Below are positions 33,558 to 49,875 of a DNA stretch of 55,189 bases, in pieces (position 1 is the first letter of the stretch; each line of letters begins with the position of its first letter). The notes beneath the pieces are model-generated. The model was not told the DNA's origin, ran no database searches, and was given only the letters and a program-made list of their open reading frames with translations. The stretch comes from a virus. Its lineage: Duplodnaviria; Caudoviricetes. The stretch covers positions 1 through 55,189 of the IMG/VR virus record IMGVR_UViG_3300025066_002456. One strand, 5' to 3'. Made by a program: the position numbers and the translations under genes.

Positions 33558-33569
33558 TTATCTGTATCC

Positions 33570-33869
33570 TCATTTTTTTTCTTGTAATAAGTCATAAATA
33601 TCAGATTTATCATCTGGCGACAGGCCTTCAACAATCGTTTCTTTTTTAGAAATAAGTGAGGCCAGCTTCACCAACTGTTCATTTGATCTTTGTAGTGTTT
33701 CTAAATATTTGGCAGCTACAGGGCCAGAATATTGGTGTTTGGTTTCATCTTGTTTCAGAATTTTCATTAATTCTATTAGAAGAGTCGAGGCGAGGGCCCG
33801 ATCTTTTCTAATATTGTCAAATGCTTCTTCAACGAAAGCATGTGAATTTATATGTTTCCCCTTTCCCAT
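33570..33869 (-). CDS. Hypothetical helical protein (99 aa)
   Basis: ORF overlapping the end of the sigma gene, same strand as neighbours. Confidence 0.7.
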   Translation of the reverse strand: MGKGKHINSHAFVEEAFDNIRKDRALASTLLIELMKILKQDETKHQYSGPVAAKYLETLQRSNEQLVKLASLISKKETIVEGLSPDDKSDIYDLLQEKK

Positions 33870-34540
33870 TCGTTTTTAAACATCCTATATCTTTTTCGTA
33901 TCCTGTTGAGATTGTTTACAATCTGCTTAGTATTCAAGCCCGTGATTTCTCGCATATACAGGTAAATAGCTTTTTTATTAAAAATTTCAATTTCGTCAAT
34001 ACTATTAAAGAGGATGTTAATGGCATCTAGGACTTTTTTTTCATTATCCTTTAACTTAAGTTTTTCCCAGCTTTTCATTTCTTGAAACAAATGCTGCCAA
34101 AACTCGGCTTCCTCCCTCTCGGATTCATAATAGTTTTTAGTTATTAACTTATCAGATTCTAAATTTATAGGCAGATCTTCGTATTGAACATCCCTCTTTA
34201 ATCTTTTAGAATTTTGTTTTACTTTATGAATAAACCAATTTTTAGTTATGACACTGAAATAAGAAAACGCTTTTGATTTTTTACTTGGATCGTATTTGTC
34301 TAAAATTGTTATAAGCCATAGCTTGCAATCATCTTTTAAATAATCGATATTTGGCAAATTATTAAATTTGTACGTATACACAATTTTATCTACCATTTCG
34401 TCAAATGCAGGACCAATATATTGTATATATAATTCTGATCTTATACTTTTTTCGTCAGTTAAGGCATAATCTATAATTGCATTTTCATGCACTTTTGTAA
34501 AATAATTATTCTTCTTTCGGGTTTTCTTCTTCGTAGTCAT
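33848..34540 (-). CDS. Phage RNA polymerase sigma factor (gp55-like/late sigma)
   Basis: Region-2-like LDKYDPSKKSKAFSYFSVITKNWF; C-terminal HTH-like YMREITGLNTKQIVNNLNRIR; N-terminal NNYFT. Confidence 0.75.
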   Translation of the reverse strand: MTTKKKTRKKNNYFTKVHENAIIDYALTDEKSIRSELYIQYIGPAFDEMVDKIVYTYKFNNLPNIDYLKDDCKLWLITILDKYDPSKKSKAFSYFSVITKNWFIHKVKQNSKRLKRDVQYEDLPINLESDKLITKNYYESEREEAEFWQHLFQEMKSWEKLKLKDNEKKVLDAINILFNSIDEIEIFNKKAIYLYMREITGLNTKQIVNNLNRIRKRYRMFKNEWERGNI

Positions 34541-35148: not shown

Positions 35149-35149
35149 C

Positions 35150-35356: not shown

Positions 35357-35357
35357 T

Positions 35358-36257
35358 TTATTCTCCTTTGTTATACCATTCATAAGTTTTTCTCAAGCCC
35401 TCCTGAAAGGGCGTAAAATTATATTTTCCGATTAGCTGCATTAATATGTCGTTCCTGCCATCTTTGCGTAGTGGCCCTTCAAGTTTTCCATTAAAGTTAT
35501 ATTTTACATCTTTTTTAGAAATTTTTAAACAAATATCAATCATTTCTTTAATAGAGGGGTTTTCATAAGGCGCCACTATAATGGGATCGTTCGTGTGGTG
35601 TTTTTCTAGTAATAGTGGAATAATTTGTGCCAAATCTTCGACATAAAGCTGTTGCCGTCGAGGCTTTCCTGTGCCCCAAAACTCTAGCGTATCGCCATGG
35701 TTTGATTCAGAAAATTTTCTTATCATAGCTGGAACAAAATGAGAAGATGTAGAATCAAAATTATCATCCGGGCCGTATACATTTGAAGGTGAGAATGTAC
35801 TATAATCCACTCCATACTGCTGTCTATATGCAGATGACATTACATGTAGACATCTTTTTGCATAACCATATGAAAAATTGCTTTCTGGTGGAGGGCCTTT
35901 AAATAAATCACCCTCGTTAAAAGGAAAAGATTTTATATTTTCCGGGAAGACACACGTGCTCAAAATTGATAATACACGAGGGACACTCTCTTTATACGCT
36001 TCATGTATTACATTTGTATTGATTTTAATATTCTTATGTATATATTCAGCTTGTTTATCGGTATTATCCTTAATTCCACCTACTTTGCCAGCTAAATGTA
36101 TAATGGCATCTAGATGCCTATGATCACGAATCATGCCACGAGTTTGATAATCGCTGGTTAAATCGTAGTCTTTTGATGAAATGTAAATCCATTCTGGCTT
36201 TTCTTTTTTAAGAGCGGAACCTATAAAACCACTACCGCCTGTAACTAATATTCTCAT
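35358..36257 (-). CDS. fcl: GDP-L-fucose synthase-like NDP-sugar epimerase/reductase
   Basis: TGGSGFIG, HLAGKVGG, LSTCVFP (Cys), YGYAKR, SHFVPAMIRKF (His), WGTGKPRR. Confidence 0.85.
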   Translation of the reverse strand: MRILVTGGSGFIGSALKKEKPEWIYISSKDYDLTSDYQTRGMIRDHRHLDAIIHLAGKVGGIKDNTDKQAEYIHKNIKINTNVIHEAYKESVPRVLSILSTCVFPENIKSFPFNEGDLFKGPPPESNFSYGYAKRCLHVMSSAYRQQYGVDYSTFSPSNVYGPDDNFDSTSSHFVPAMIRKFSESNHGDTLEFWGTGKPRRQQLYVEDLAQIIPLLLEKHHTNDPIIVAPYENPSIKEMIDICLKISKKDVKYNFNGKLEGPLRKDGRNDILMQLIGKYNFTPFQEGLRKTYEWYNKGE

Positions 36258-37132
36258 TAAAGTGTAAACTCCTTCTCAAAAAAATCACCGCAAGCACAAT
36301 GTTCGGTGAAATACTTTTTTGCATCTTCGCTAAACCATTTAAAAATATAATTATTCATTAATTTAACAAAATTTTCTTCGCTTAAGTTGCCAAAACCATC
36401 ACAATAATGCCATACTTTTATCTGTTTATGATCTTTAGTATAAAGTTTTTTATCTTGAACATAGAATTTATTTAAATGAGGTCCCCAAGGTTTTTCATAA
36501 GTAGAAAATTTTGCTGGTTTACCAGGTCCATCCAACGGCTGGGCGTGATAACCTTTCGGAAGACACATGTTTCCTTTTGAGCGAACATTGTAAACAACTT
36601 TACTTTTTAAATAAGGTCCATCAACTATTTTACAAGAATATTTATAATCATTTGACCATACAACATAGTTCAACGCACCCTGTTCCGCATATGCAGGGAA
36701 AAGTGGTGATTTTTTTATAATGTCACGAATAGCTTTTAAGTTATTAAAACAAATTACATCTGCATTTAAATGTGTTTCTTCGGTTGGAGTGAGCAACATA
36801 TGATTGTCAACCAAGTAATAGGGATAATCTAGCGAAGCTAAAATATCATGTTCATTATCATCTAAAAATTCATTTAATCTTGCACATGTTATAGTATCGG
36901 CGCCTAAAATAATTATTTTGTCTAATTTATGTTTTATCATTATTTCATAAGCTAGCATATATTTAGAAGCGCCGGTGTCCGGCACCGCGGTTAGCCCGTG
37001 AGCTTCTCTATTATTCTTATTAACATGAAACAATGTTATATCAGGATGGAATTTTTTGAAACTTTCCATCGCACATGATCCAAGTTTTTCGTATTTTCTT
37101 CCATAAAAATATATTAAACAACCAATTTTCAT
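36257..37132 (-). CDS. GT-A fold glycosyltransferase, GT8-like
   Basis: IILGADTI (variant DxD), LNADVICF, EQGALN, HYC; located within the glycan cluster. Confidence 0.6.
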   Translation of the reverse strand: MKIGCLIYFYGRKYEKLGSCAMESFKKFHPDITLFHVNKNNREAHGLTAVPDTGASKYMLAYEIMIKHKLDKIIILGADTITCARLNEFLDDNEHDILASLDYPYYLVDNHMLLTPTEETHLNADVICFNNLKAIRDIIKKSPLFPAYAEQGALNYVVWSNDYKYSCKIVDGPYLKSKVVYNVRSKGNMCLPKGYHAQPLDGPGKPAKFSTYEKPWGPHLNKFYVQDKKLYTKDHKQIKVWHYCDGFGNLSEENFVKLMNNYIFKWFSEDAKKYFTEHCACGDFFEKEFTL

Positions 37133-37171
37133 TCAGCCCTCTTTAATTGTAAAATGAACTTTAAATTTATA

Positions 37172-39043
37172 CTATTCAACTTCACTATATTTAACACTAG
37201 TGTTATTGCGTCCGTCCATGGTGATGATAGGAAAACGTTTTTTTATAGTTTTTCCTTTGATTCTATTTCTTTCATCATCAAAATCACTCTCAATAGCAGT
37301 AATCATGGTGCCGTCTTCCCTAACAACAGCTTCGGAAGCTTGTTCATTATTGTGCTCAATTCCAGACTTTTCTTTTCTTTGAATTCCGTGCCAATAATTC
37401 ATTCTTTCTTTGTCTCTCTCTACTTGTTCTTTGTATTTTTTCTTAAATGGCTCCCGGGCGGGAGCACTCATACCATTCAATAAGTTGCTCAACAGCGCTT
37501 TCTCTACTTCTTCATAAAACATTTTTCTTTCTTCTACGGCATCTTCTCTAACAAAAGAAGCCCTTAGAAGACCATACGTTAAATCCCCTCTTGCAGAAAA
37601 AATTTGTTTAATGAGACCGGTCAAGCCAAAATTATATTTTAATGAATAATCTACAATAGAAGGTATCAATTTTCTTTGTATCAAAAAGTTTTCAGGAGAT
37701 TCTAATATGCGATTTAAGCTAATAGCATTTCTTATTTTATCTTTCCATTCTAAAAGTTTTGCATACGTGTGGTCAACTTCATAAAACGGAACGCCACCAT
37801 CTGTTAGCCAGTATTCATCATCGATGACACCATAGTCTTCAATTTCCATCTTGGCTTCTTTAGCTATAGTAAATAATTCTGTCCCGGGATATATACCGGC
37901 CACACCAATGTCATCATAGTATATATATTGCATTTCTTGCAATTCTTGCACAAAATCTATTGTCTCATCTATTGTCTCTTCTGACTCACCAGGAAGACCT
38001 GCTATAAGAAAGGTGGTGGTTTTTATACCAGTTTCTGAAAATAATTTTCTGCCATGACGAACAGACTTATGAGTTAATCCCTTTTTCATTAACCTCATTA
38101 CGTGTTCCGAGCCTGATTCTAGACCAAAAAGAACATGCACAAATCCAGCTTCTTTCATCAACATAACAACTTCTCTAGAGATTGGTCGAAAGCGAGCGCT
38201 GCAAATAAAATTTGTTTTGATGCCTCGCTTAATTATTTCTTTGCAAAACTCTATTGTTCTGTCCTTCACAATCATAAAAGCGTCATCATGAATCCACACC
38301 GTGTTGATTGAGGGGTGATTAATTAAAATTTGTTCTACTTCATCGCATATATTGCTAGCAGAGCGACATCTAACTTTACGACGGCTTGCTGCGTCTAGAA
38401 CGCAGAAATTACACTTATACGGGCAGCCGCGGCTAGTAAGAAGGCCGGCAATGTCTTTCCCCTCCCAAATAAAAAGCTCATGCTTGGGAAATGGAAGTAC
38501 ATCGAGATCAGCAATCAGGGCGCGGGCGCCAGTTACTACAACTTCTTCTTTATTTTTATCATAGTAAGCTATGCCTCTGACATCATCGATCGGCAATCCA
38601 TTTTCCCACCTCTCCATAAGCTCGCCTAGTGTTACCTCTCCCTCCCCGACAACACATATGACCTCAGGATAAGCTTCAGCCAGCTGGTGATACATAACAC
38701 TGACGTGCATCCCGCCAATTACAATTTTAGTATCTGGCGAAATTTTCTGAATTAATTTAATTAATTTATAAGCGCCGACGCGGCTGTGAGTCATCATAGA
38801 AATCCCCACCACATCAGGCTTGAACGTTTCTATGTCTCCCTTGAGGGTCTTAAGACATTTCTCCATTGAGACATTGTTTAAGAATTGTGTTTTGATATTG
38901 TAGCCCCTGTCTAGGCTCTCTAGGTAAGAATGTAGATAACCCAATCCTAGTGGATAGTGGCTGTCATGATCATTCTCTATTCTATGATCTTCTTCTATAG
39001 TAGTACAAGTTAATAATATATTCATTTTTCTTACCATCGCCAA
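37172..39043 (-). CDS. Cobalamin-binding radical SAM protein (class B methyltransferase-like)
   Basis: YPLGLGYL, IVIGGMH and VGEGE in the B12 domain; TSRGCPYKCNFC; GLESGS. The start may be 39025 (MNILL). Confidence 0.9.
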   Translation of the reverse strand: MAMVRKMNILLTCTTIEEDHRIENDHDSHYPLGLGYLHSYLESLDRGYNIKTQFLNNVSMEKCLKTLKGDIETFKPDVVGISMMTHSRVGAYKLIKLIQKISPDTKIVIGGMHVSVMYHQLAEAYPEVICVVGEGEVTLGELMERWENGLPIDDVRGIAYYDKNKEEVVVTGARALIADLDVLPFPKHELFIWEGKDIAGLLTSRGCPYKCNFCVLDAASRRKVRCRSASNICDEVEQILINHPSINTVWIHDDAFMIVKDRTIEFCKEIIKRGIKTNFICSARFRPISREVVMLMKEAGFVHVLFGLESGSEHVMRLMKKGLTHKSVRHGRKLFSETGIKTTTFLIAGLPGESEETIDETIDFVQELQEMQYIYYDDIGVAGIYPGTELFTIAKEAKMEIEDYGVIDDEYWLTDGGVPFYEVDHTYAKLLEWKDKIRNAISLNRILESPENFLIQRKLIPSIVDYSLKYNFGLTGLIKQIFSARGDLTYGLLRASFVREDAVEERKMFYEEVEKALLSNLLNGMSAPAREPFKKKYKEQVERDKERMNYWHGIQRKEKSGIEHNNEQASEAVVREDGTMITAIESDFDDERNRIKGKTIKKRFPIITMDGRNNTSVKYSEVE

Positions 39044-39981
39044 TTATCTTTATAATATTCAACAATTTTTATTATTTCCTCATCAAAAGACTTCTTTGGC
39101 CTCCAGCCTAGATTTTTTATTTTTTCGTCATTTAACGCATACCTTACATCTTGACCGATGCGAGAATAAGAGAAGTCTATATGTTCTTTATAGTTTTCTC
39201 TATCTCCATGATATTGCACAATAATCTTTCTAACAGTATCTAGGTTCTGTTGTTCAAAATTACCAGCAACATTATAGACTTCATTAAAAAAACCAGAATT
39301 AATAACAGTTATAACTGCAGCTGTAGTATCATCAACATGTAGCCAGTTTCTATAAGGGGTACCGCCATTATGCAGCCGTATTTTTTTACCTCTCATGAGA
39401 TTTTTTACTGACAATGGAATAAGTTTTTCGGGATATTGCCCGATACCATAATTGTTAGTTGGGCGGAGGATGTTGTAGCGAAGGCCATATGTTCTGGCCC
39501 ATGCTAGTATCAGCATATCTGCTGCAGCTTTTGACGCAGCATATGGGTTACTAGGGTATAAGAGATCTTCTTCTGTGTGTTCGCCATGATTGATATCCCC
39601 ATATACCTCATCTGTGCTAAGATGAAGAAAGGCAGGTCGCGGATTACAATTCTCCTGCTTATGCCGAATAAGTTCTAATAGATTCTTAACTCCTAAAATA
39701 TTGGTATTTATAAAATCATCGCTTGATACAATACTATTTCCAACATGAGATTCAGCTGCATAATTTACTACATAATCACAATCGTAAAGATGTGTGAGGC
39801 TTCTTATATCCTTCCTTTCGAAAGAGAAGTTTTCATAACTACAAAACTCATCAAGCAATTTAGAATTAGCTGCATAAGTCAGCTTGTCAACGCCATAAAC
39901 TTTCCAACCAAGTTTTAAGGCAGCTCTTGTAAAATGTGAGCCCATAAAGCCTAAACATCCGGTTACATATATTAGTTTCAT
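39031..39981 (-). CDS. rfbB: dTDP-glucose 4,6-dehydratase (RmlB/RfbB)
   Basis: TGCLGFMGS, DKLTYAAN, AAESHV, STDEVYG, PYAASKA, NNYGIGQYPEKLIP. Confidence 0.9.
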   Translation of the reverse strand: MKLIYVTGCLGFMGSHFTRAALKLGWKVYGVDKLTYAANSKLLDEFCSYENFSFERKDIRSLTHLYDCDYVVNYAAESHVGNSIVSSDDFINTNILGVKNLLELIRHKQENCNPRPAFLHLSTDEVYGDINHGEHTEEDLLYPSNPYAASKAAADMLILAWARTYGLRYNILRPTNNYGIGQYPEKLIPLSVKNLMRGKKIRLHNGGTPYRNWLHVDDTTAAVITVINSGFFNEVYNVAGNFEQQNLDTVRKIIVQYHGDRENYKEHIDFSYSRIGQDVRYALNDEKIKNLGWRPKKSFDEEIIKIVEYYKDNWRW

Positions 39982-41306
39982 TGTAACTCCTTGAAAAACG
40001 TGTCGACTATTTTTTTAATATAAGAAATTTTTTGTTCAGTCATGCCAATAAATGTTCCCAAAAAGAAAGAGCTAGTAGTTACTAAATGGGCGTTTTTAAA
40101 CGTGTTTCTAAGGTCTGTGTAGTCGTCCCTTAAGTGCATATAGCCTGGATGATACATAATATTACCAGAAAAATAAGATCTAGTTTGAATCTTATTTTTC
40201 TCCAAGAAGGAAACAAAATCATTTCTATTAAATGGCGATTCTTCTTTAATAGTTAACAAAAAAGCAAACCAATTTGGATCAGAGTTCTCTGTTCGCTCCG
40301 GCAAATGAAAATATTTCTCATAAGGCTTGAAAACTTTTAAAAGCTTTCGAAAATTCTCTCGACGGGCTTCATCTAGAACAGGAAGTTTCTTAATCTGCTC
40401 TAGGCCAATAGCAGCTTGTAGTTCTATAGGTTTTAAATTATATCCAATTTCATCAAAAACGTATCTGTGGTCGTAATTAAATTCAGGTAAATCCGGGAGC
40501 CATGGTTGAAGCCTGTCTCCGCATGCAGTATCGGAGACAACGCAGCCGGGCTTTCCAGTATTGCAATAGCATGCGCGGCCCCAGTCTCTAAAACTAGATA
40601 ACGATTTTCTCATTGCGCCTTTGTCTGTCGCGATGAAGCCGCCTTCGCCCAAGGTCATGTGATGTGCCGGAAAAAAAGAACATGTTGAGACGTCGCCAAA
40701 AGATCCCAATTTTTTGTCTCTATAAGTAGAACCTAGAGCGTCACATGCGTCTTCGATAAAGATTAAATTATGATCATCTATAATACTCATCAAGCGATCC
40801 ATATTTGGAGGATTTCCAAGTACATGCGCGAACATTATTCCTTTAATGCCGGGATCTTTTTTCAATATTTTTTCTACTTCATCTAGATCTAGATTTAAAT
40901 CTGGCAATGTCACATCTACAAAGACCGGCTTCAGATTGCATTGAATTAAAGGATTTATAGTAGTAGGAAAGCATACAACAGGAGTTATAAATTTATCTCC
41001 ATCTTTTAGGCCAAAATGAGATTTTACTGCAGTCACGGCCAGCAAATTAGCTGAGCTTCCTGAATTTGTCAAGGATCCATATTTTTTTCCTAAGAATTTC
41101 GGAAATTCTAATTCAAACTCCCGAGACTTCTTACCAAAAATTAACCATTCATCCAAAAGGCTATCAAACGCCGCGGTATACTCTTTTTCATCGAAATGAG
41201 GTCCGGAATAGGAAACCCAGTCTTTTCCTGGTACCCAGGAATCACATGACCTTTTCTCTAGAATATATTTTTTTACTAGATCTAATATCTCTCGTTTTGT
41301 TACCAT
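39978..41306 (-). CDS. rfbH: NDP-4-keto-6-deoxyglucose 3-dehydrase (RfbH/DdhC, E1)
   Basis: NSGSSANLLA, EDACDALG; SFFPAHHMTLGEGG has His in place of the aminotransferase Lys; Fe-S Cys cluster WGRACYC...C...C; DHRYVFDEIGYNLK. Confidence 0.9.
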   Translation of the reverse strand: MVTKREILDLVKKYILEKRSCDSWVPGKDWVSYSGPHFDEKEYTAAFDSLLDEWLIFGKKSREFELEFPKFLGKKYGSLTNSGSSANLLAVTAVKSHFGLKDGDKFITPVVCFPTTINPLIQCNLKPVFVDVTLPDLNLDLDEVEKILKKDPGIKGIMFAHVLGNPPNMDRLMSIIDDHNLIFIEDACDALGSTYRDKKLGSFGDVSTCSFFPAHHMTLGEGGFIATDKGAMRKSLSSFRDWGRACYCNTGKPGCVVSDTACGDRLQPWLPDLPEFNYDHRYVFDEIGYNLKPIELQAAIGLEQIKKLPVLDEARRENFRKLLKVFKPYEKYFHLPERTENSDPNWFAFLLTIKEESPFNRNDFVSFLEKNKIQTRSYFSGNIMYHPGYMHLRDDYTDLRNTFKNAHLVTTSSFFLGTFIGMTEQKISYIKKIVDTFFKELQ

Positions 41307-42091
41307 TTCCCCTCATGCGTTTTTTTAAGAGCCGTAATAGTCTCTTCTAATCTAACAAATATATCGCTGCTAATTATCTTATTCAAATATTCTGTATTCT
41401 GGCCAAAATAATTATCAATACTGGGCTCAAGGATTTTAACACCTGCTTCAGTGATGCATCTTTCTTTTATTATATTAGCTATCTCGTGTAATGTCAAGCT
41501 AGTCCTATAGCTACAATCTACGCTTTTTTTTAAGTTATTGTTATTAATATAATAATCAATTAAAATTAATAAATCTTTCATATGAAAAAAATCCATTTTC
41601 TTGTCTTTGTGGACTATTATCTCCTTTCCACCTAGCGCTCTATTGACACTTGCTTTAATGAATCGTGTGTTGATTTCATTTTCATCAAAAAGACCATAAA
41701 TTTTGATATTATAAAAAGAATCTAAGTCTTCTATAAGTAAGCCAATCGCTTTTTTGCTGATACCATAAAAACTAGTAGGCTTATCTTGAGCGCCTGATCC
41801 AAAATGAATAAACTTACCATATTTAGATTTGTGTCTTAGCAAGTTACAAAACATCTCTAGATTGTCTGAAACGATGCTTTCTGTTTCTTGAATTAAACGA
41901 CTGCCGCCCACAACGGCTGTATGTATAACGACGTCACAGCTAAAGCCTTTAAAGTAGCCATCAACTTGTTCTTTGTTCGACAAGTCACACACAGCTCTAT
42001 TTAGCCTGAATATTTGATGTCCTTTACTTTCTAAGTAATTGCTAACAGAAGAGCCAATATAACCATTTGATCCTGTAATCAATATTTTCAT
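41300..42091 (-). CDS. NAD-dependent NDP-sugar epimerase/reductase (extended SDR)
   Basis: ITGSNGYIGS, FGSGA, YGISK. Confidence 0.85.
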   Translation of the reverse strand: MKILITGSNGYIGSSVSNYLESKGHQIFRLNRAVCDLSNKEQVDGYFKGFSCDVVIHTAVVGGSRLIQETESIVSDNLEMFCNLLRHKSKYGKFIHFGSGAQDKPTSFYGISKKAIGLLIEDLDSFYNIKIYGLFDENEINTRFIKASVNRALGGKEIIVHKDKKMDFFHMKDLLILIDYYINNNNLKKSVDCSYRTSLTLHEIANIIKERCITEAGVKILEPSIDNYFGQNTEYLNKIISSDIFVRLEETITALKKTHEGKW

Positions 42092-42092
42092 T

Positions 42093-42569
42093 TTACCTCT
42101 TGAGATTCAAGTAAGTAGGCATGTTGTTATTTATTAGGTTGTCAAAATTTTTGTCTAGCTCATGCTCTGTTCTAGGATGCATGGTAATGACGTTTTCGAA
42201 ACACTTCATTATTTTTTTGTCGTCTTCTGCCCAATGAGAAAATCCAAGATATCCATAATCTCTATCGCGACCACCGCCAATTAGCTTGACAGGTGTTTTT
42301 TCATGATCAAGATAGTTTCTTATTAATTCGAAAGGACGGTATAACACAAAAGGAGTTATAGAATATACCACTGGTATCTTTCCTTCCATGGCCATTCCTG
42401 TTGCCGCTCCTACCATCAACTGTTCGGACGAACCAAAGTTATAAAAGCGATCGCTATAGTCGATTCTTATGCGATCCCACAGACCATATCCGAGATCACC
42501 CGTTAATAGAATGATATCTTGGTTTACACTCATTTCAGAATGTAGCTTTTGACTAAAGTGTTTTCTCAT
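42093..42569 (-). CDS. Split transketolase, pyrimidine-binding subunit
   Basis: LTGDLGYG, RFYNFGSSEQLMVGAATGMA, YSITPF, RPFELIRN, LGFSHWA. Confidence 0.88.
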   Translation of the reverse strand: MRKHFSQKLHSEMSVNQDIILLTGDLGYGLWDRIRIDYSDRFYNFGSSEQLMVGAATGMAMEGKIPVVYSITPFVLYRPFELIRNYLDHEKTPVKLIGGGRDRDYGYLGFSHWAEDDKKIMKCFENVITMHPRTEHELDKNFDNLINNNMPTYLNLKR

Positions 42570-43200
42570 TTTCTATTAACTTCTTACCTAGTTTATAATC
42601 GCTTTCGCTCATTATGTGATAATGTGCATTTAAACCTTTTAAAAATGGAAAAGCACTCACATCAGTATATACAATGTTGATTGTTGGTAGAAAAACTTTT
42701 AGCCTATCGACCAAATATCTAGTATCTACTGAGCCATATGCTGCGTACCCATTAACATTAACATATACTTTTATATTTTTTAAGTTGTTTTCCCATATGA
42801 ACTTTAATGCCTCCCATATACTACCTTCTGCGCACTCTCCATCACTTATAAGGCAATATACATCCTGGTCTTTGTTTGATAAAGCACGACCGACTGCAAC
42901 TGTTAGTCCCAACCCCAAACTTCCTGTTGAGCAATAAATCTTATCTTCTTCACACAAGTGTGGATGGCCACCATGTTTTGCGAACAATTCTGCTGCATCT
43001 AAATTGCAATATTTTTCTAATACTGCGTATAGTGATAGTGCGCAGTGGCCACAAGACAAAATAAATTTATCTTTTTCTAAGTCCATCTCGGAATAGATTT
43101 CGTCAATGATTTGCAAACTAGAAAAATATGATCCCAGATGAGAAAGCTTGTTTTTATAGGCAATTTCTAAAACTCTTTCTTTTAATTTTACATCTGCCAT
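42553..43200 (-). CDS. Split transketolase, N-terminal ThDP-binding subunit
   Basis: SHLGSYFS, FILSCGH, GHP, STGSLGLGL, SDGECAEGSIWEA...N ThDP motif; the ATG at 43200 has a GGAGG SD. Confidence 0.9.
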   Translation of the reverse strand: MADVKLKERVLEIAYKNKLSHLGSYFSSLQIIDEIYSEMDLEKDKFILSCGHCALSLYAVLEKYCNLDAAELFAKHGGHPHLCEEDKIYCSTGSLGLGLTVAVGRALSNKDQDVYCLISDGECAEGSIWEALKFIWENNLKNIKVYVNVNGYAAYGSVDTRYLVDRLKVFLPTINIVYTDVSAFPFLKGLNAHYHIMSESDYKLGKKLIENEKTL

Positions 43201-43934
43201 TTCTTCCTCCAATAATCTTGTATCATCTGATCATAGTTTTTCCCTTCTCTATGCACATTCCAAGTTGCTTGCTCGGGATGCCATCTATAGTTATAGCCTG
43301 TAAATTTATGGGCTGGCCAAATAAATATATCTTTATCAGCTAGTTGGCAATACAGATCATAGTCTGCGGCGCCACCATAAACTTCTGGCTTAGTAGTCAG
43401 CATATTTTGCTCAAAGAGCTTTCTACTATAAACAACAGTTGGGCTATTAACAGGGCATTTCATTAATAGTAAGTTTTTTAATTCATCCAGTGTTTTGTAA
43501 CTATGACCCAAATGTCCAACTGAGTTTCCATCTGCTTGGACATTATTAATAGGGCTTTGTAAAGCTAGTATCCTATCTCTTGCTGCGTTGATGTACTTCA
43601 TACAATTAGTAATATAATTTTCATTATAATAGTCGTCAGATGCTAGCGTAAAAAAATATTCGCCCTTTGCTAGCTTGAAACCCTTAAAGCGAGCTTCGTC
43701 CCAACAGTTTGGATATATATTTTTTTCTTTTTCTACTCTTAGTTTGTCAGGGTGCTTTTGTCTTATTTCTTCTAGTCTATCTACAGTGTTATCAGCGCTT
43801 TCATTATCAATTGCTATGACTTCAAAATCACTGTAATCCTGACTAATAGCCGACATCACACATTGTTCTATCCAAGCTTCTGCATTGTAACATGGTATTA
43901 TAATAGATATTTTTGGCTTTACAGTTGTAATAAT
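43188..43934 (-). CDS. GT2-family glycosyltransferase; true start lies upstream of the track start and is non-canonical or uncertain
   Basis: The frame extends upstream of 43859 as IIITTVKPKISIIIPCYNAEAWIEQCVMSAISQDY; IDNES, LASDD and ADYDLY motifs. Confidence 0.8.
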   Translation of the reverse strand: MITTVKPKISIIIPCYNAEAWIEQCVMSAISQDYSDFEVIAIDNESADNTVDRLEEIRQKHPDKLRVEKEKNIYPNCWDEARFKGFKLAKGEYFFTLASDDYYNENYITNCMKYINAARDRILALQSPINNVQADGNSVGHLGHSYKTLDELKNLLLMKCPVNSPTVVYSRKLFEQNMLTTKPEVYGGAADYDLYCQLADKDIFIWPAHKFTGYNYRWHPEQATWNVHREGKNYDQMIQDYWRKKWQM

Positions 43935-44815
43935 GATTTAACCCTATTAATGTACGTATGGTTTTTCAGTATATCAAGCCTATTTTGCTCTTTTATAGCT
44001 TTAAGCTCTTCACGGTTTTTTGCTAAAAGAGTTAAAACAGTATGCTTCATCTCCAAAGGAGATGAAACAGTTTGTACTTCAGGAAGTAAATTTGTTACCT
44101 CTTCCACCTTATCTGTCAGCAGTAAGCCGGTGAGCCCTAGAGACTTGAATGTTCGTTCATTGGTATCAAGGCCTAGGACTCTCTGATATGCGTCATGAAT
44201 ATTGAGTGCCACTTTACTATTTGATAAAATTTTATTTTCTTGTTCATGAGATATGTTCTTGTTAATAAAGATACCACACTTTATCTTAGTATCTTTGAAT
44301 TCTTTAAAATAGTCAAGCATTATTTTTCTTTTCTCATTAAAGCCATTATCGGCCCACCCCCCAATAAAACAAATATCAAATTTATATTTTTTATCTTCTA
44401 TTGGTTTATAGTTAATTGAATCGAAAGCCAGAGGAATATATTTTACGTTTCTCCATTTAAAATGAAAATCAGTTACTCTTCCAAAACACCACTGGTGAAC
44501 GTTCTCACTGTTATTTAACTTCTCTATAATTGTGTCCGGACACAAAGAAATAAAATTTGGATGCGCTCCCCATGGCATCGGGAAACGATTAGGCTGGACG
44601 TAAACAAAACTCTTTCTTGAATTCTCTATAGCTTCATAATTTGACTCTCTTATGTTCGAGTCTAAGGCCATTACATAGTAGTCTCCATGTGCTTCTATTT
44701 CTTCTAAATTATCATAAAAAATTGTGTTATAACCTAAAGATTTCCAGGCAGAAGAATAGCCATTATATATCCATTTCCCGGCGCCACTATTATGTCTCTT
44801 AATGTATACTTTCAC
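43919..44815 (-). CDS. Glycosyltransferase, CgeB/Glyco_trans_1_2-like
   Basis: YIPLAFD, DICFIGG, SKVALNIH, NERTFK, HTYINRV. Confidence 0.8.
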   Translation of the reverse strand: MKVYIKRHNSGAGKWIYNGYSSAWKSLGYNTIFYDNLEEIEAHGDYYVMALDSNIRESNYEAIENSRKSFVYVQPNRFPMPWGAHPNFISLCPDTIIEKLNNSENVHQWCFGRVTDFHFKWRNVKYIPLAFDSINYKPIEDKKYKFDICFIGGWADNGFNEKRKIMLDYFKEFKDTKIKCGIFINKNISHEQENKILSNSKVALNIHDAYQRVLGLDTNERTFKSLGLTGLLLTDKVEEVTNLLPEVQTVSSPLEMKHTVLTLLAKNREELKAIKEQNRLDILKNHTYINRVKSLLQL

Positions 44816-45729
44816 AATGATGTTATACTCTCTAAGATGCTTGCAAGCCTTACTTTAGAGTCGTGATCTTTTATAAACCTTCTGTAGCCATTCTGAGTTA
44901 TTTTTTCTATTAATTTAGGCTTCTTAAGCAGAAAATTCACTTTTTTGAGCATTTCATCCGCTGTCTTGAAGGTTATTATTTCTTTGTCTATTTCAAAGTG
45001 GTTCTCAATTCCAGGAGCATATTCTGTAAATAAAAGCGCATTAGCCGCTGGTATTTCTACCATACGCCCCTTCATCTGCAACACCGGTGGTCTAGCGTTA
45101 TAATTCTTACTAAAGTTTATCCCTAATTTAGACTCAGATATTAAGCTTAACATCTCTTCGCGGGGGATACCATGAAAATTTTTGATATCAACGTTGTTGT
45201 TCTTTAAATAATCTATATAATACTTTCGATCGTAATTCATCATGCCACAAAAAGAGATATCAAGCTTTTTAGTATTTTTTTTCGGATATAAGTCTGCATT
45301 TGTATGCCAAAAACCTAAAAGTATATTATTATAGCCTATTTCTTTAAATTTTTCAATGTAATGAACTTCGGGAGTGGAACACACATGAAAAAGGCTGCAA
45401 ACACGACTTGAAAAAGTTTCAAAGCGCCATGCATCATCGCAAAACCAATTAAATGTTTTACAATTTCCTTTTTCAGTTTGTTTTATTATTCCCTCCCATG
45501 GCTCATGAGGTGTGAGGCTAGGATCGCCTGTCATACAACAATAAATTAAGTCTGGCTTGAAGTTGTCTACTATTTTATCAAAGTCTCTTTCTTCAGGATC
45601 AACAGTATCGTAAAAGTATACGTTATGTCCTAATTCTTTTAATGGTACATATAGATTTCCATAAGCACCATCATCCCACTTCTTTTCTCCATTTTGAAGA
45701 GTCTTGTTAACAACTAAGAGTATATTCAT
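44812..45729 (-). CDS. Glycosyltransferase, CgeB/Glyco_trans_1_2-like
   Basis: WFCDDAWR, DISFCG, SKLGINF, KGRMVEIPA, LFTEY, DHDSKVR. Confidence 0.82.
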   Translation of the reverse strand: MNILLVVNKTLQNGEKKWDDGAYGNLYVPLKELGHNVYFYDTVDPEERDFDKIVDNFKPDLIYCCMTGDPSLTPHEPWEGIIKQTEKGNCKTFNWFCDDAWRFETFSSRVCSLFHVCSTPEVHYIEKFKEIGYNNILLGFWHTNADLYPKKNTKKLDISFCGMMNYDRKYYIDYLKNNNVDIKNFHGIPREEMLSLISESKLGINFSKNYNARPPVLQMKGRMVEIPAANALLFTEYAPGIENHFEIDKEIITFKTADEMLKKVNFLLKKPKLIEKITQNGYRRFIKDHDSKVRLASILESITSL

Positions 45730-46562
45730 TCGTATACTCTTTCTATTAAGTCTGTTATTTCTTTATGCTTTTCTCTCATTTTATTAATAAGAGGTCGACC
45801 CTTTAATTTATACCACGACTCCTTGGTGGCGCCGACTAAATTATTTGTTATAACAGCCGTATTCATCATCCGGGCTTCGACGACCACTCTTGATAGGGTC
45901 TCCGGAGTGTCAGGGAGAAAAATTAAATTTTTATTTTTTGACAACAAAAATAGAAAATCATGATAATTTTGTGATGATATAAGCTCATAATCTAAGTCTT
46001 TGTACTCACAATATTTTATAGATTTTACTGTTCCTTTGTGAGGAATTTTAGAATTAATAATACTATATTTGTTTTGCTTATCTCTCTTAGAAAACTTTTC
46101 CATTAAATCTAAGGAATTGTTACTCCATAGATTTCCTCCTGTAGAAACAATATTCTCTAAATTTAAATTTTTCCTTACAATATTAGCGTGGAAACTAGTC
46201 TGACAAAAAACACTTCTAGCATTTTTATAAAAATTTAAATTGATAATTGCTTCTTCTGGAGCTTTGAAGTCTTCATAATCTGCAGGGTTTCTTGATGAGA
46301 GATATTTATGATCATGTTCATAAATAACATATTTGTAGCTTTCAAGGGCAACCCTGCAGTCTTCTGACAAATTTATGAAATTTGCTATTATAAAACAGCT
46401 ATTTTTGTTTTGTCTGAATAAATTTGAAGTTACTTTGTGAGATCTATACTTTAAAACATCATGTCCTCTCTTTTTAAGAAGATTGATTAATATCTCATTA
46501 TGTATTTCACCGCCGCCTAGAATATCCTCTAGAAAAAAATCTGCTATAAAAATTATTTTCAT
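45726..46562 (-). CDS. GT-B (GT4-like) glycosyltransferase
   Basis: GGGE near the N-terminus, YEHD, KG, ETLSRVVVEARMM (E-x7-E-like). Confidence 0.7.
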   Translation of the reverse strand: MKIIFIADFFLEDILGGGEIHNEILINLLKKRGHDVLKYRSHKVTSNLFRQNKNSCFIIANFINLSEDCRVALESYKYVIYEHDHKYLSSRNPADYEDFKAPEEAIINLNFYKNARSVFCQTSFHANIVRKNLNLENIVSTGGNLWSNNSLDLMEKFSKRDKQNKYSIINSKIPHKGTVKSIKYCEYKDLDYELISSQNYHDFLFLLSKNKNLIFLPDTPETLSRVVVEARMMNTAVITNNLVGATKESWYKLKGRPLINKMREKHKEITDLIERVYE

Positions 46563-46564
46563 TA

Positions 46565-47839
46565 TCAATCATGTGTTTCAATTTGCTCGTCTATCTCTTC
46601 AAGCCAGCTTTCTACATCGAACTCTTCTTCGGTACCAAGATCTAATTTTTCTAAAATTTTATTCAATTGTTTTTCTTCATTAAATTCTTCACAAACCCAT
46701 TTTTGAAGTTCTTTTGAGCGTTTCTTAAATCTACCATGATCTTTATAAACGTCTTCTAACGCCATTTTTACTGAGCCTTCCTCTGGGTAAGCCCACATTG
46801 AGTCAGATTGTATTACGCCATCCCATACAGACTCCTTTTCTACATGCTTAAGAGTATAACTTAATTTAGAAAACATATGTTTAAATTTTTCTTTGCCATT
46901 CTTGTGTTTTGTACTTTTATAAAGAAAATCTAAATGTCCTGACCAATCAGTAGCAATTATTGGCAAGCCATAATATGCTGCCTCAAACATTGGAAGGCCA
47001 AAACCCTCGCCATGTGTGGTGCTGACAAGGGCTTTAATTTTTGGATGTGTGTATAAGCCGGCCATTTCTTGATCAGTAAGATAACCATGTAATAAATATA
47101 GTTTGCACTTGCGATCTGGATATTGTGATATTACGCTCTTAAAGCGCGCCATTGTATGATTGCGATCGAGTAATGAATTTTTTGCCATATTTGCTTTCAG
47201 AATCAATCCAACATTCTCGTTATCTTTAAACGTCTCTATAAAACACTTTATAGCTTGAAGTGCGTTTTTTCTTGGAGATATCTGTGCCACAGATAAGAAA
47301 TTGAATTCTGTTTTTAAACTTAAGTCTAATTTTACGGGATCAAATTTTCTAACCGGATAAGACACATAGTCAACTGGAGTCTGGGTTTTGTAGACCCCTT
47401 CTTCGCCTGTTTGTTCATTTTTATATTTGTACTCAGTTTCTTCGAAAGTACTTTTAGAATGCTTACTAATTGTAACAATTTTATCCATTAGAAAAGATTT
47501 CTCGATCCACTGAGGAGATACCTTTGTGGTCTCGATACCGGCAGTTATCCCAATATTAATAGGCGCTATTTTCTCCCATTCATTGGGGATAGTCACCTGC
47601 AGGGAGACGTCAAACGCACCACCAGAGTTAACATACCCTATGGTCTTTTGCAGAGCTTCGTCAATCCATCTTCTTTCTTCATCGTCCTCCCAAAGCCAGC
47701 TGGTTGCTCCCCAAACAATGGGCTGTATATAAACATCATACAAATCTGGTTTAGTCCTTAGGGCACGCAAGATAGTTCTCGCATGATGACCATATCCAGA
47801 TTGAGTTAAAATTGGTCCCTTTAATAATACTTTTTTCAT
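46565..47839 (-). CDS. GT4-family glycosyltransferase
   Basis: SGYG, RKN, THGEGFGLPMFEAAYYGLPIIATDWSGH; the ATG at 47839 has a GAGG SD (track start 47863). Confidence 0.9.
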   Translation of the reverse strand: MKKVLLKGPILTQSGYGHHARTILRALRTKPDLYDVYIQPIVWGATSWLWEDDEERRWIDEALQKTIGYVNSGGAFDVSLQVTIPNEWEKIAPINIGITAGIETTKVSPQWIEKSFLMDKIVTISKHSKSTFEETEYKYKNEQTGEEGVYKTQTPVDYVSYPVRKFDPVKLDLSLKTEFNFLSVAQISPRKNALQAIKCFIETFKDNENVGLILKANMAKNSLLDRNHTMARFKSVISQYPDRKCKLYLLHGYLTDQEMAGLYTHPKIKALVSTTHGEGFGLPMFEAAYYGLPIIATDWSGHLDFLYKSTKHKNGKEKFKHMFSKLSYTLKHVEKESVWDGVIQSDSMWAYPEEGSVKMALEDVYKDHGRFKKRSKELQKWVCEEFNEEKQLNKILEKLDLGTEEEFDVESWLEEIDEQIETHD

Positions 47840-47841
47840 CC

Positions 47842-49095
47842 TCAAACCTCGTTTAAGTGCCATTTTTTATAGCCGCTTCTAGTTTCCCAAGAGCCACATT
47901 TATTATATATTTCAGTTAATAGTTCTTCCCAACGAGAGGTATACGCCTCATAATTATATTTTTTATTAACATATTCGTTGCCCATAGACCCCATCTTGTC
48001 GCGTTCTTCCGGTGTCATATTATAAATTTTTTCTAATGCATTAATGAAATCTTCTTTGTTGATTCTGTCTTCATATATGTATGGTATATCCTGTGAACCT
48101 ATAACAGCTTTAGAAACCGGCTCTATGCCAATACCAAACCAATTTTCTCCATCAGTAACTTGTTCCTGTAGACCACCTGTCATATTAACAATAATCGGAG
48201 TTCCACATGATAAAGACTCTAAAGTAGATAAACCAAACCCTTCCGCATCAGAAATGTTAACAGTAACGTCTGCAACATTGTACATTGCAGCTAAATCTGG
48301 AAAATCAACTTTTTGTGTTGAGAATTGTACTTCGCCATTTGTCAGCCCCAGATCTTCTACTATAGCTATTAAATTTGGGCCATTGGGGTCTTTTGGATCT
48401 GTATGCATAATTAATCTAGCATTTTTTTGGTCTACCCTATCTAAGAACTCTTTAAACCAGTGAATTAATGTACCAGATTGCTTTCTTCTGGCATTACGAT
48501 TATTCCAGAATACAACAAATTTCTCTTCTGGTATTTTCATTTTTTCACGTAAAGCTTTTTTATCTTCTTCACTCAAAGGCTTAAAATTTTCTGGCCTAAC
48601 AGCATGTGGCAAGTAGTGACTTTCCACCTCCGGAGAGACAGTGTTAACTATATCATGTGTAACTTTTGATATACATACTACAGCATCGTTAGAATCATAC
48701 CACACTTTGTTAAATTTTGGATATGGATAATTATCCCAAACATGATAATAAACCATTGGCATCAATGATCTAATTTCATCTTCAATTTCCCATAGCCACG
48801 GGAAGAATCTGGGATCTGTCATAAACCAAAGCATATCTGGTTTTTCAGTGCGTATAATCGATCTTACAGATTCCTGACTTCCGTATCCATCAACAGGATA
48901 AACAACTAGATTTTCTCCCCACTTGTCTGTTTTTTGTGGGGCATAATCAGTATGCTTTATCGCTCCACCAAAACACAAAAAACTAAACTTCTCTGTCTCT
49001 AAGAGTGCTTCAATCATATAACGTGTTTGTGTACCTACGCCGGATGGTGAGTAAGGATGGTCAGCTATAACAAAAACCTTAATTCTTTCTTTCAT
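47842..49095 (-). CDS. GT4-family glycosyltransferase
   Basis: PSGVG, NRNARRK, SDAEGFGLSTLESLSCGTP, TGGLQEQV. Confidence 0.9.
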   Translation of the reverse strand: MKERIKVFVIADHPYSPSGVGTQTRYMIEALLETEKFSFLCFGGAIKHTDYAPQKTDKWGENLVVYPVDGYGSQESVRSIIRTEKPDMLWFMTDPRFFPWLWEIEDEIRSLMPMVYYHVWDNYPYPKFNKVWYDSNDAVVCISKVTHDIVNTVSPEVESHYLPHAVRPENFKPLSEEDKKALREKMKIPEEKFVVFWNNRNARRKQSGTLIHWFKEFLDRVDQKNARLIMHTDPKDPNGPNLIAIVEDLGLTNGEVQFSTQKVDFPDLAAMYNVADVTVNISDAEGFGLSTLESLSCGTPIIVNMTGGLQEQVTDGENWFGIGIEPVSKAVIGSQDIPYIYEDRINKEDFINALEKIYNMTPEERDKMGSMGNEYVNKKYNYEAYTSRWEELLTEIYNKCGSWETRSGYKKWHLNEV

Positions 49096-49098
49096 TTT

Positions 49099-49875
49099 TT
49101 ACCTACAATGTTTTGTTTTATAAAATTCGCAACCAAAGCCCGAGGTACATGATAAACGATTTTTTATGTACTTGTTATTTTCAATATTATAAATCGATTT
49201 TTTAAGTAAGTTAAGAGAATTCTCAGTTTTTTTCACACCGCTAGTTACGCGAAATATTTCTACGTTGTTGGTTTTTGCCGTACGTTTTAAAAGTGCAAAA
49301 TGAGTTTCTATATTTTTTGGATCTATGCTGTGCTTTTTTGCAAAATAATTTTTATATAACGTTAGCTGATAGCTTGTTATTCTATCAGTTTTTCTCTTTG
49401 AGTCCCAGCCCCAAGAACAGGTCTTCCAATCAATAATATGGTATTTTTGATCCGGTGTTTTTATCACCAAGTCAATGTAACCTTTGAACTTCAAATCTGT
49501 ATCTTCAAGATCTTCGTATAGCTCTTCTTCCACAGAAAATACTTCAAAATTAGTAAACGTCTTTTTTAAAGACGGCAAGATATGTAAAAGTAGGCCTTCT
49601 ACCTGTTTTCTCATTTGTAAAATTAAATCTTTTTTAAGATCGACTTTTTTTTCTGTTAATAATTTCAGTTCTTCTAAGAACTTAGAATTAAATTCTAACA
49701 ATAGATCTATCTTCTCGTCAAAGACAACTTTCTCGCATACATGATGGACGGCTGTACCAAAGGCAGTATACTCGTTACCTAAAAATTTTTTTATATTTTC
49801 CACATAAACTAATTTATGTTTAAACGGACATTCATTCCAGATTTTCAACTCTGAAAAAGATATATGTGATCTCAT
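49099..49875 (-). CDS. PD-(D/E)XK nuclease, RecB/Cas4-like
   Basis: SFSEL...CP, GTAVH, GYIDL, IIDWKT, QLTLY; three C-terminal Cys plus one N-terminal Cys. Confidence 0.88.
   Translation of the reverse strand: MRSHISFSELKIWNECPFKHKLVYVENIKKFLGNEYTAFGTAVHHVCEKVVFDEKIDLLLEFNSKFLEELKLLTEKKVDLKKDLILQMRKQVEGLLLHILPSLKKTFTNFEVFSVEEELYEDLEDTDLKFKGYIDLVIKTPDQKYHIIDWKTCSWGWDSKRKTDRITSYQLTLYKNYFAKKHSIDPKNIETHFALLKRTAKTNNVEIFRVTSGVKKTENSLNLLKKSIYNIENNKYIKNRLSCTSGFGCEFYKTKHCR

Follow-up and report, generated by a model that had tools for sequence, protein, structure and literature searches.

The window analyzed here is the whole of a linear IMG/VR phage record of 55,189 bp (IMGVR_UViG_3300025066_002456), estimated by CheckV to represent ~29% of a complete genome, and its source is an uncultured marine T4-like phage of an abundant lineage. 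Between positions 35358 and 49095 lies an island of 14 minus-strand open reading frames (ORFs) encoding glycosyltransferases (GTs) and sugar-tailoring enzymes, for which the best reading, held by us with about even confidence, is a membrane-free phage glycosylation system that acts on the virion. An earlier note on this DNA, made from the letters of the sequence alone, had described 14 tightly packed same-strand genes comprising about seven GTs and seven tailoring enzymes, and had proposed that soluble enzymes glycosylate the virion. The packing is confirmed, all 14 genes lying on the minus strand with gaps or overlaps of at most 59 nt, and the census proves right by way of Pfam matches for 12 of the 14 proteins, the fold of a protein called GTB280 below and an ESM Atlas lead for a 291-residue protein. 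The proposal itself stands in part: its alternatives are weakened and a motif in the tail proteins lends circumstantial support, but no chemistry showing a glycan on virions of this group was found in print, and similar clusters have been read as changing the host O-chain in the available part of PMC7029224. The contrary case, that the contig might be a cellular lipopolysaccharide (LPS) or capsule locus, falls away, the window being a phage record.

A near-constant glycosyltransferase core in a hypervariable slot

The seven GTs of the island are two of family 4 (GT4a and GT4b), GTB280, two CgeB-like enzymes, a GT2 and a GT8-like protein. Relatives were collected by searching IMG/VR with GTB280, which returned 242, and the best 80 loci were examined, many of them cut short where the contig or the 10-kb flank stops. 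GTB280 is present in 80 of 80 by construction, having been the query; beside it GT4b is found in 79, GT4a in 76, a PD-(D/E)XK nuclease in 72 and PhoH in 71. The cargo is far less regular, with GT2 in 35 loci, the dehydrase RfbH in 33, the radical S-adenosylmethionine (SAM) enzyme in 22 and the thiamine diphosphate (ThDP) enzyme in 16. What the window carries is one variant of a hypervariable slot, the core of which is near-constant and the remainder of which is swapped, and a fixed locus with content that differs between strains is a mark of virion glycosylation systems.

The gene order of the window recurs almost exactly in loci L016, L017 and L035, among others, and in six relatives found through the 1227-residue protein encoded downstream, the corresponding position is occupied by a different set of sugar genes. 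In the relative G005, the slot between the nuclease and the sigma module holds the GT4 pair only; in G001 (147 kb, 81% complete) and G003, the islands extend to ~20 kb and also carry radical SAM enzymes, split ThDP genes and methyltransferases, with an FAD oxidoreductase in the larger islands as well. As to the synteny that the earlier note had offered as a check, the sugar slot keeps its nuclease border, and the sigma-like protein downstream is present in 8 of 80 loci, most loci stopping short of that position.

GT4a (47842..49095, minus strand, as for all island genes below) is the first gene of the island and a GT-B enzyme of family 4, with a Pfam Glycos_transf_1 match of 58.4 bits; it also passes the cut-off of the Pfam family ‘GT4 in conflict systems’ (40.8 vs. 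26 bits). GT4b (46565..47863), the second conserved GT4, matches Glycos_transf_1 at 33.4 bits. The residues E285-x7-E293 of GT4a are invariant across 31 sequences, and E286-x7-E294 of GT4b are likewise invariant. Chlorovirus NY-2A protein B736L (3oy2) is the best solved sequence relative of both (E 1.9e-12 for GT4a and 1.3e-5 for GT4b), in matches that span the GT-B core only, and the neighbors of GT4a among solved structures include the small-molecule GTs BshA and MshA. GT4b is also the predicted partner of GT4a: modeling of the complex gave scores of 0.88, 0.88 and 0.89, as against 0.00 for the best control, with contacts agreeing between runs to at least 98% and a partner pLDDT (predicted local distance difference test) of at least 89. 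Of 157 solved complexes 116 attain the complex-score mark, and of 215 mismatched pairs 2 do; these counts apply only roughly here because our own alignments were used. On these models GT4a and GT4b probably bind each other as a heterodimer, although solved GT-B pairs might inflate the score.

GTB280 (45726..46568), the third core gene, encodes a compact GT-B protein of 280 residues that lacks a Pfam match and was assigned by its AlphaFold2 (AF2) model (pLDDT 95.4) and a Foldseek search, which returned BshA (3mbo, E 3.5e-9) along with Gtf3/GtfC, WbnH, TarM and the T4 alpha-glucosyltransferase (AGT). A target class cannot be read from this fold search and was rejected as a use of it, because GTs acting on protein (Gtf3/GtfC), DNA (T4 AGT), O-antigen (WbnH) and teichoic acid (TarM) all appear among the matches. 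Homologues of GTB280 number 1128 at E ≤ 1e-5, with 52–75% identity among the 119 listed (the window’s own excluded); they come from viral or metagenomic sequence only, and in some loci the protein is fused to a GT2 domain. Among 50,697 GenBank phage records, GTB280 has no match.

A serine motif enriched in distal tail proteins

Expectations for short motifs were obtained from within-protein shuffles. By this measure the tripeptide [ST]GS occurs 35 times in 10 structural proteins of the window, vs. 10.0 ± 3.2 expected (3.5-fold), and 4 times vs. 2.2 in 22 other window proteins. The excess is concentrated in three distal proteins, p515, p1944 and p2104, in which no other tripeptide is as enriched as TGS (17 vs. 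2.5) and SGS (18 vs. 3.1). The specificity extends to single residues: at position 1 only Ser and Thr and at position 3 only Ser are enriched ([ST]GT 5 vs. 4.2), and at position 2 Gly is enriched, with Ala and Ser more weakly so. The flanks of the sites in the three proteins show no repeat.

The candidate acceptor p515 (14756..16303, minus strand) is a multi-beta-sandwich protein encoded directly after the gp6-like wedge protein and has 9 [ST]GS sites. All 69 of its 69 distinct orthologues carry 5–11 sites, with a mean of 7.4 vs. 1.0 expected, and these fall in 45 alignment columns, a few nearly fixed and many sporadic. Its AF2 model is of moderate confidence (pLDDT 71.5), with Foldseek matches to SraP, a carbohydrate-binding module and the lambda tail tip, all of which are generic beta-sandwich proteins; in the DSSP string of this model, six of the nine sites are predicted to lie in coil or at strand ends, two in strands and one at a boundary. 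The other two candidate acceptors are giant distal structural proteins, p1944 (8900..14734, minus strand), with 19 [ST]G[ST] sites vs. 4.2 expected, 15 of them [ST]GS, and p2104 (2548..8862, minus strand), with 12 [ST]G[ST] sites vs. 3.4. When the window proteins are compared with their G001 orthologues, the sites held in the same alignment columns come to 10/15, 3/9 and 1/11, the first figure being that of p1944 and the last that of p2104. Across orthologues the density of sites is thus maintained even as individual positions change.

The same enrichment is seen in five of five other phages with the GT4 pair, namely G001, G005, Flavobacterium phage immuto, Microcystis phage Mel-JY01 and Rhodothermus phage RM378. 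Counts of [ST]GS in G001 reach 20 vs. 2.5 and 6 vs. 0.7, with further proteins of its structural region also enriched. In G005, the p515 orthologue has 12 vs. 1.7 and the next, incomplete giant 7 vs. 2.9, the other large ORFs of G005 showing no enrichment. Proteins of immuto (e.g., 26 vs. 6.1 in its 1053-residue ‘tail spike’) and Mel-JY01 (11 vs. 1.5 and 9 vs. 0.7) follow, as do six RM378 ORFs that lie side by side (21 vs. ~3.3, rows summed). Three phages without a GT4a homologue served as negative controls. The fibres gp34–38 of T4 (6 vs. 4.5 expected) and the baseplate and fibre proteins of cyanophage Syn1 (28 vs. 20) are not enriched; in GAP32, z is ≤1.4 in 10 of 12 proteins, the others being a 280-residue virion protein with one site (z 2.6) and a giant with 7 vs. 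2.3 (z 3.0), so that any enrichment there is at most weak.

Several other motifs tried in the window structural proteins were rejected, none being enriched: G-x-[ST]-[AGS] (29 vs. 27.3), TTT (2 vs. 3.3), SSS (9 vs. 7.1), N-x-[ST] (101 vs. 105.4), D-x-N-x-[ST] (5 vs. 7.2) and [ST]P (68 vs. 77.7). No 40-residue tract rich in Ser or Thr stands out.

The glycosyltransferase pair in phages of other hosts

New relative to the earlier note is that the conserved GT core extends to phages with hosts in different phyla. GT4a homologues occur in 20 GenBank phage records. In immuto and Mel-JY01, the GT4 pair is preceded by a PD-(D/E)XK nuclease, as it is in the window, and in immuto the homologous pair is accompanied by a sugar island. 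RM378 has a GT4 pair alone among replication genes, with a second member that is only weakly GT4b-like (E 2e-7, N-terminal part). That the hosts of these phages span different phyla fits an acceptor carried by the phage itself. The literature search found no mention of Mel-JY01, and it found RM378 together with ‘glycosyltransferase’ only in work unrelated by title.

When 185,579 species genomes were scanned in a pattern-limited search, close relatives of GT4a turned up at 11 loci (L188–L198), all in metagenome-assembled genomes (MAGs) of unrelated taxa, with labels that include Woesearchaeota, Pelagibacter, Flavobacteriales, Maricaulis, WOR-3, Neomarinimicrobiota and Gammaproteobacteria. Their contigs are mostly 3.5–24 kb long. 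Short contigs in unrelated MAGs fit mis-binned phage DNA, and these loci are probably phage contigs binned into cellular genomes; two Pelagibacter labels among them are at most a weak hint of a host.

Virion, host surface and other acceptors

The earlier note had reported no flippase, polymerase, undecaprenyl-phosphate transferase or membrane GT in the island and had asked for a membrane prediction on all 14 genes, and both family scans and hydropathy bear it out. No island protein (0/14) has a transmembrane (TM)-like segment, the highest 19-residue Kyte-Doolittle mean being 1.52 against a threshold of ≥1.6, and among 805 island ORFs (≥100 aa) of the 80 loci, 772 lack any hydrophobic segment, 32 contain a single one, one contains two and none contains three or more. 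The components of a membrane-based serotype-conversion or O-antigen cassette, namely GtrA or a Gtr-type GT, Wzx, Wzy, WaaL and an initiating phosphoglycosyl transferase, are not seen in the window or in the 77 ORFs of G001 scanned (≥90 aa, outside its island), nor is a flippase, polymerase or ligase seen among the 805 island ORFs; the sole faint pointer to such a cassette is a GtrB-like PHROG match of the GT2, given below. An integrase likewise has no match in the window or the 77 scanned G001 ORFs, both records being incomplete genomes, so that there is no sign of lysogeny.

These results bear most directly on the possibility that the island remodels the host envelope. Here the phage GTs would act on host undecaprenyl-linked intermediates, lipid A-core or capsule precursors, and the host’s own initiating transferase, flippase and ligase would export the altered glycan, with the result that superinfection is blocked or progeny are kept off debris. 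Such a role would suit the strain-level variability of the island, as expected of a surface antigen, and genes of the GT4, GT2 and RfbH types are, by their NCBIfam names, typical of O-antigen clusters; it is also the published reading of similar pelagimyophage and cyanomyophage clusters in the available parts of PMC7029224 and PMC12801897. The peripheral GTs of O-antigen synthesis are likewise without TM helices. We nonetheless consider host remodeling unlikely, given the lack of an initiating transferase, flippase, polymerase or ligase in the sets just described and of any sign of lysogeny, and given that the GT4 pair is kept across phages of Bacteroidota, Cyanobacteria and Rhodothermus, the envelope acceptors of which differ. 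It also leaves the [ST]GS enrichment on tail proteins unexplained.

That same enrichment, confined to tail proteins, is equally unaccounted for if the acceptor is a host protein, a lipid, a small molecule or a free oligosaccharide, modified in the course of host takeover or defense evasion. The conflict-system match of GT4a and its small-molecule neighbors BshA and MshA point in this direction, as does the setting of the GT4 pair amid replication and nucleotide genes in RM378 and upstream in the window. A hypervariable multi-GT island with rare sugars would, however, be unusual for a single intracellular target, and no candidate acceptor gene travels with the island; we regard an acceptor of this kind as quite improbable.

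DNA is an unlikely target, and hypermodification, in which sugars would be placed on a modified base against restriction in the T-even or 5-hydroxymethylcytosine (5hmC)-glycan style, is to our mind very improbable, even though phages have GTs of the GT-A and GT-B folds, akin to those for LPS and teichoic acid, that do glycosylate 5hmC with mono- to trisaccharides from clusters that can sit near structural genes (10.1101/2023.12.21.572611, available part), T4 AGT is among the many GT-B Foldseek matches of GTB280, the island comes after nuclease and PhoH genes and the window covers only ~29% of the genome. The earlier note had seen no base-hydroxymethylase, and this holds: there is none in the window, and the ThyA-like family PF00303 has no match in any of 5 related records, one of which is the 81%-complete G001. 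A C5-methyltransferase or Tet/JBP enzyme has no match in the window or the 77 scanned G001 ORFs, and a dedicated Tet_JBP search, which found nothing, was weak because its control gave no match anywhere. Published chemistry, newly brought to bear on this question, comes from immuto, which carries the homologous GT4 pair and a sugar island: the DNA of immuto_2-6A, analyzed by liquid chromatography with UV and tandem mass spectrometric detection (LC-UV-MS/MS), is reported to contain dA, dC, dT and fdPreQ1 replacing dG, with no sugar nucleoside in the available part of the report (PMC10516641). Seven GTs and a branched dideoxy sugar would moreover exceed any DNA glycan found in the available part of 10.1101/2023.12.21.572611.

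Several observations weigh against a virion glycosylation system as well. The literature search found no glycan measured on any virion of this group. With regard to timing, the T4 late-promoter word TATAAATA occurs 7 times in the window vs. 8.2 expected and so gives no signal, and a scan for sigma-70 and terminator consensus sequences over 33000–52600 was uninformative. Solubility by itself does not discriminate, O-antigen GTs being cytoplasmic and soluble too. Closeness to tail genes is not general, with ~22 kb of small genes intervening in immuto and the RM378 pair embedded, as noted, among replication genes. Scans with Pfam and NCBIfam found neither a nucleotidyltransferase nor an E3-type reductase for RfbH in the window. 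The motif has its own difficulties: it is not enriched in the island-side 1227-, 485- and 3297-residue proteins, in gp6 or in gp25 (the 3297-residue ORF has 1 [ST]G[ST] site vs. 3.4 expected), and the immuto enrichment lies partly in repeats, with GSF, SHA and HAE enriched there too. All tested phages with the GT4 pair also share homologous baseplates (gp6 ~30% identical). This confounds the presence of the pair with shared descent, and the motif could be an inherited structural feature; the negative controls, moreover, number only three.

A proposed pathway from host sugar nucleotide to tail glycan

If the island does act on the virion, its enzymes would work in the cytoplasm of the infected cell. 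The analysis shows which genes are present, that their products are soluble as judged by hydropathy, how the slot is conserved and varied, and the motif statistics; all chemical steps, the acceptor and the timing in the following scheme are our inference. The GT4a-GT4b pair, probably a heterodimer, would together with GTB280 start a glycan on a phage-encoded acceptor, most likely at [S/T]-G-S serines in distal proteins of the baseplate and fibres. Extension of this glycan with a rare sugar would then fall to the variable GTs, the outcome being a strain-specific sugar coat on the tail. The GTs assigned to extension are two Glyco_trans_1_2 (CgeB-like) enzymes (44812..45729, PF13524 80.1 bits, with a homologue in 27/80 loci, and 43919..44815, 52 bits, 32/80), a GT2 of the GT-A fold (43188..43859, PF00535 56.9 bits, 35/80), which also has a weak GtrB-like PHROG match (E 4.3e-5), and the 291-residue protein (36257..37132, 2/80). 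This last has no Pfam, PHROG or NCBIfam match; its likeness to ESM Atlas viral clusters that belong partly to PF01501 or PF03407 provides a lead that it may be a GT8/Nucleotid_trans-like GT-A enzyme.

The rare sugar would be made by the seven tailoring polypeptides, which are a split ThDP pair, three short-chain dehydrogenase/reductase (SDR) proteins, a DegT-family RfbH and a B12-binding radical SAM enzyme. The 4,6-dehydratase and the pyridoxamine phosphate (PMP)-dependent 3-dehydrase (RfbH/E1) of the 3,6-dideoxyhexose pathway are both present. The former is an NDP (nucleoside diphosphate)-hexose 4,6-dehydratase-like SDR of 316 residues (39031..39981; PF16363 194 bits) whose nearest NCBIfam entry is dTDP-glucose 4,6-dehydratase (TIGR01181, 312 vs. 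cut-off 365 bits) and which scores nearer the dTDP than the CDP type; the latter is an RfbH-type NDP-4-keto-6-deoxyhexose 3-dehydrase (39978..41306; NF011936 463.2 vs. cut-off 423 bits; 33/80 loci). Together they would convert host NDP-glucose to NDP-4-keto-3,6-dideoxyhexose, the E3 reductase and the sugar-1-phosphate nucleotidyltransferase being presumed to come from the host.

The split ThDP enzyme would attach a carbon branch to the 4-keto sugar. Its diphosphate-binding subunit (42553..43212), which is transketolase N or E1-alpha-like, matches PF00456 at 40 bits (16/80 loci) and the NCBIfam transketolase entry at 91 bits, far under the cut-off of 488, and its pyrimidine-binding subunit (42093..42569) matches PF02779 at 55.6 bits (14/80 loci). 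The adjacent short SDR (41300..42091; PF01370 73.2 bits; 33/80 loci), by gene position a candidate ketoreductase for the branch or for C4, would reduce the branched sugar, and the last island gene, a GDP-fucose-synthase-like epimerase/reductase SDR (35358..36257; PF01370 157 bits; NF047922 184.8 vs. cut-off 500), would reduce or epimerize it. The B12-binding radical SAM protein (37172..39043; PF02310 and PF04055; 22/80 loci), all of whose NCBIfam matches are sub-threshold, is probably a C-methyltransferase and would methylate the sugar.

YerE of the yersiniose route is a single-chain, acetolactate-synthase-like enzyme. The window ThDP enzyme differs in being a split, transketolase/E1-like pair, and the window further departs from the YerE/YerF route in adding a B12-radical-SAM enzyme and in lacking an E3 reductase and a nucleotidyltransferase. 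The row of dehydratase, RfbH, ThDP enzyme and adjacent SDR nevertheless resembles that for the yersiniose-type, acyl-branched 3,6-dideoxyhexoses, in the scheme for which NDP-4-keto-3,6-dideoxyhexose is the acceptor of ThDP enzymes (PMC9306805, available part).

Larger relative islands encode a PfkB-type kinase, and that of G001 additionally a small cytidylyltransferase-like protein (L008 1626–2369 and L002 6891–7298 in G001; L004 4424–5158 in G003). Between them these two proteins recall HldE, a heptose kinase/adenylyltransferase, each being similar to one half of it, and some relative islands may activate their own sugar.

A wider version of this scheme may be put forward, tentatively and with the expectation that it is rather more apt to fail than to hold. 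A broad T4-like group comprising the marine lineage, immuto, Mel-JY01 and RM378 would share a cytoplasmic protein O-glycosylation with a three-residue sequon, in which the GT4a-GT4b heterodimer primes the [S/T]-G-S serine on exposed tail and baseplate proteins and the hypervariable island adds strain-specific glycans, here with a branched, methylated 3,6-dideoxyhexose, the sites coming and going while their density is maintained, much as happens in animal-virus glycan shields.

Comparison with known systems

GtfA/GtfB and SdgA/SdgB are soluble cytoplasmic GT-B enzymes, encoded by adjacent genes and forming complexes, that place the first sugar on serines of surface proteins before assembly, and in GtfA/GtfB the GtfB subunit is non-catalytic. 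The solved structure 7ec1, which is among our matches, we take to be SdgB. The phage pair resembles GtfA/GtfB, at the level of fold and family only, in its adjacent GT-B genes and its predicted complex (0.88 vs. 0.00). Unlike GtfA/GtfB, both phage GT4s retain E-x7-E, and the candidate sites are scattered tripeptides rather than long Ser-rich repeats.

A virus-encoded virion glycosylation system is in kind already known from mycobacteriophages and giant viruses, and sugar clusters near the tail genes of marine myophages have been published. Mycobacteriophage GTs modify the phage’s own capsid and tail-tube subunits at their C-termini (Freeman et al., 2023, as cited in the available part of PMC12619734), the only measured phage virion glycosylation that the literature search found. 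The likeness lies in phage-encoded GTs with the phage’s own virion proteins as acceptors, here candidate acceptors. Those phages, however, are siphoviruses of actinobacteria with C-terminal glycans on capsid and tail tube, whereas here a scattered internal motif lies in distal tail proteins, and the window phage, known from its genes alone, adds a seven-enzyme rare-sugar pathway. The capsid N-glycans of chloroviruses and the glycosylated fibrils of the Mimivirus genus are products of autonomous virus glycosylation (PMC9614988, available part). There, too, sugar-nucleotide tailoring enzymes and GTs are both virus-encoded, but the hosts are eukaryotic and the acceptors are the major capsid protein or fibrils. 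For B736L the same source, as available, gives the acceptor as unknown and describes an enzyme that binds GDP-mannose best, yet from a virus, NY-2A, whose capsid glycans lack mannose.

The closest marine counterparts are the ‘LPS’ clusters of cyanomyophages and pelagimyophages, which have many GTs and deoxysugar genes, are hypervariable and lie close to tail-fibre genes, and for which the authors favor a change of the host O-chain or protection of DNA (PMC7029224; PMC12801897; available parts). The window differs in its motif, for which Syn1 shows no enrichment. Pelagibacter phages are absent from the GenBank phage matches of GTB280 (none) and GT4a (20 records), and no pelagiphage is among the matches listed for gp6. 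The window phage therefore belongs to another lineage, with a conserved GT core of its own. For a jumbo lineage linked to Bacteroidota, which may or may not be that of the window, a ‘moraphage’ study describes core GTs that fall into four orthogroups (PMC12619734, available part); virion glycoproteomics of such phages was not found in the literature search.

Beyond the conservation of the core, what is new here is a replicated, residue-specific [S/T]-G-S signal with negative controls, and with three cultured phages that have the GT4 pair, a concrete sequon and named acceptor proteins, the question becomes testable at the bench. Should the virion prove to be the target, sugar-coated tails would be common in abundant ocean phages and more than a mycobacteriophage curiosity, with a bearing on host range, adsorption, grazing and particle stickiness, and the ‘LPS genes’ of marine phages, now counted as host-modifying auxiliary genes, would have to be read differently. 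The tailoring module of RfbH, split ThDP enzyme and B12-radical-SAM enzyme may make an undescribed sugar.

Neighboring genes and further observations

All large genes of the window but one lie on the minus strand. In the direction of transcription, the upstream neighbors of the island are a PIN-PhoH protein and the PD-(D/E)XK nuclease (49099..49875, minus strand; PF12705 63.8 bits), which is conserved and marks the upstream edge of the slot. The gene between these two, kept in 71 of 80 loci, encodes an acidic 225-residue protein (50167–50844, minus strand) with a sub-threshold Pfam ATLF match (21.2 vs. cut-off 27.4 bits). Directly downstream of the island, an apparent 194-nt gap at 35163–35358 was considered as a promoter region and rejected, since it is filled by a 68-residue ORF (35150–35356, minus strand).

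Next come genes for a Zn-ribbon protein, for a small protein with a TM segment and for a sigma-like protein (33848..34540, minus strand), which matches phrog_234 ‘late sigma’ (E 3.3e-6) and no Pfam family. The conserved downstream border consists of the Zn ribbon, the TM protein, the sigma-like protein and proteins of 99 and 1227 residues. Between island and sigma-like gene, a 135-residue protein (34506–34913, minus strand; 10/80 loci) has one strong N-terminal hydrophobic segment (Kyte-Doolittle 2.51) and a net charge of -23. Beyond the sigma-like gene come the 1227-, 485- and 3297-residue proteins, then gp25 (18103–18501, minus strand) and the gp6-like wedge protein (16303–18099, minus strand), and three more large proteins. 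The earlier note had placed the island just upstream of a sigma factor and the baseplate operon; a sigma-like gene is indeed nearby, but the nearest recognizable baseplate gene is ~17 kb from the island and does not adjoin it. The 3297-residue ORF (18512–28405, minus strand), directly upstream of gp25, has no Pfam or PHROG match and a net charge of about -151.

In G001, the major capsid protein, of the Gp23 type (L013 4638–6497), is 619 residues long with a Pfam match only from residue 293, which points to an inserted domain or to a long extension at the N terminus. The sole plus-strand gene of the window encodes a trypsin-like peptidase (52460–53206; PF13365 E 4.4e-14). As called, it overlaps by 146 nt the opposite-strand ORF of a SpoU-type methylase (53061–53705, minus strand; PF00588 E 2.3e-24), the true start of which is probably further in. 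The only tRNA is a tRNA-Lys with anticodon CTT (54848–54923, minus strand). Next to it, an ORF cut by the window end (54927–55187, minus strand; 86 residues) corresponds to the C-terminal end of adenylosuccinate synthetase (PF00709, 27.5 bits, E 1.7e-6) and could be either an ordinary purA-type auxiliary gene or one for a PurZ-type enzyme of 2-aminoadenine DNA.

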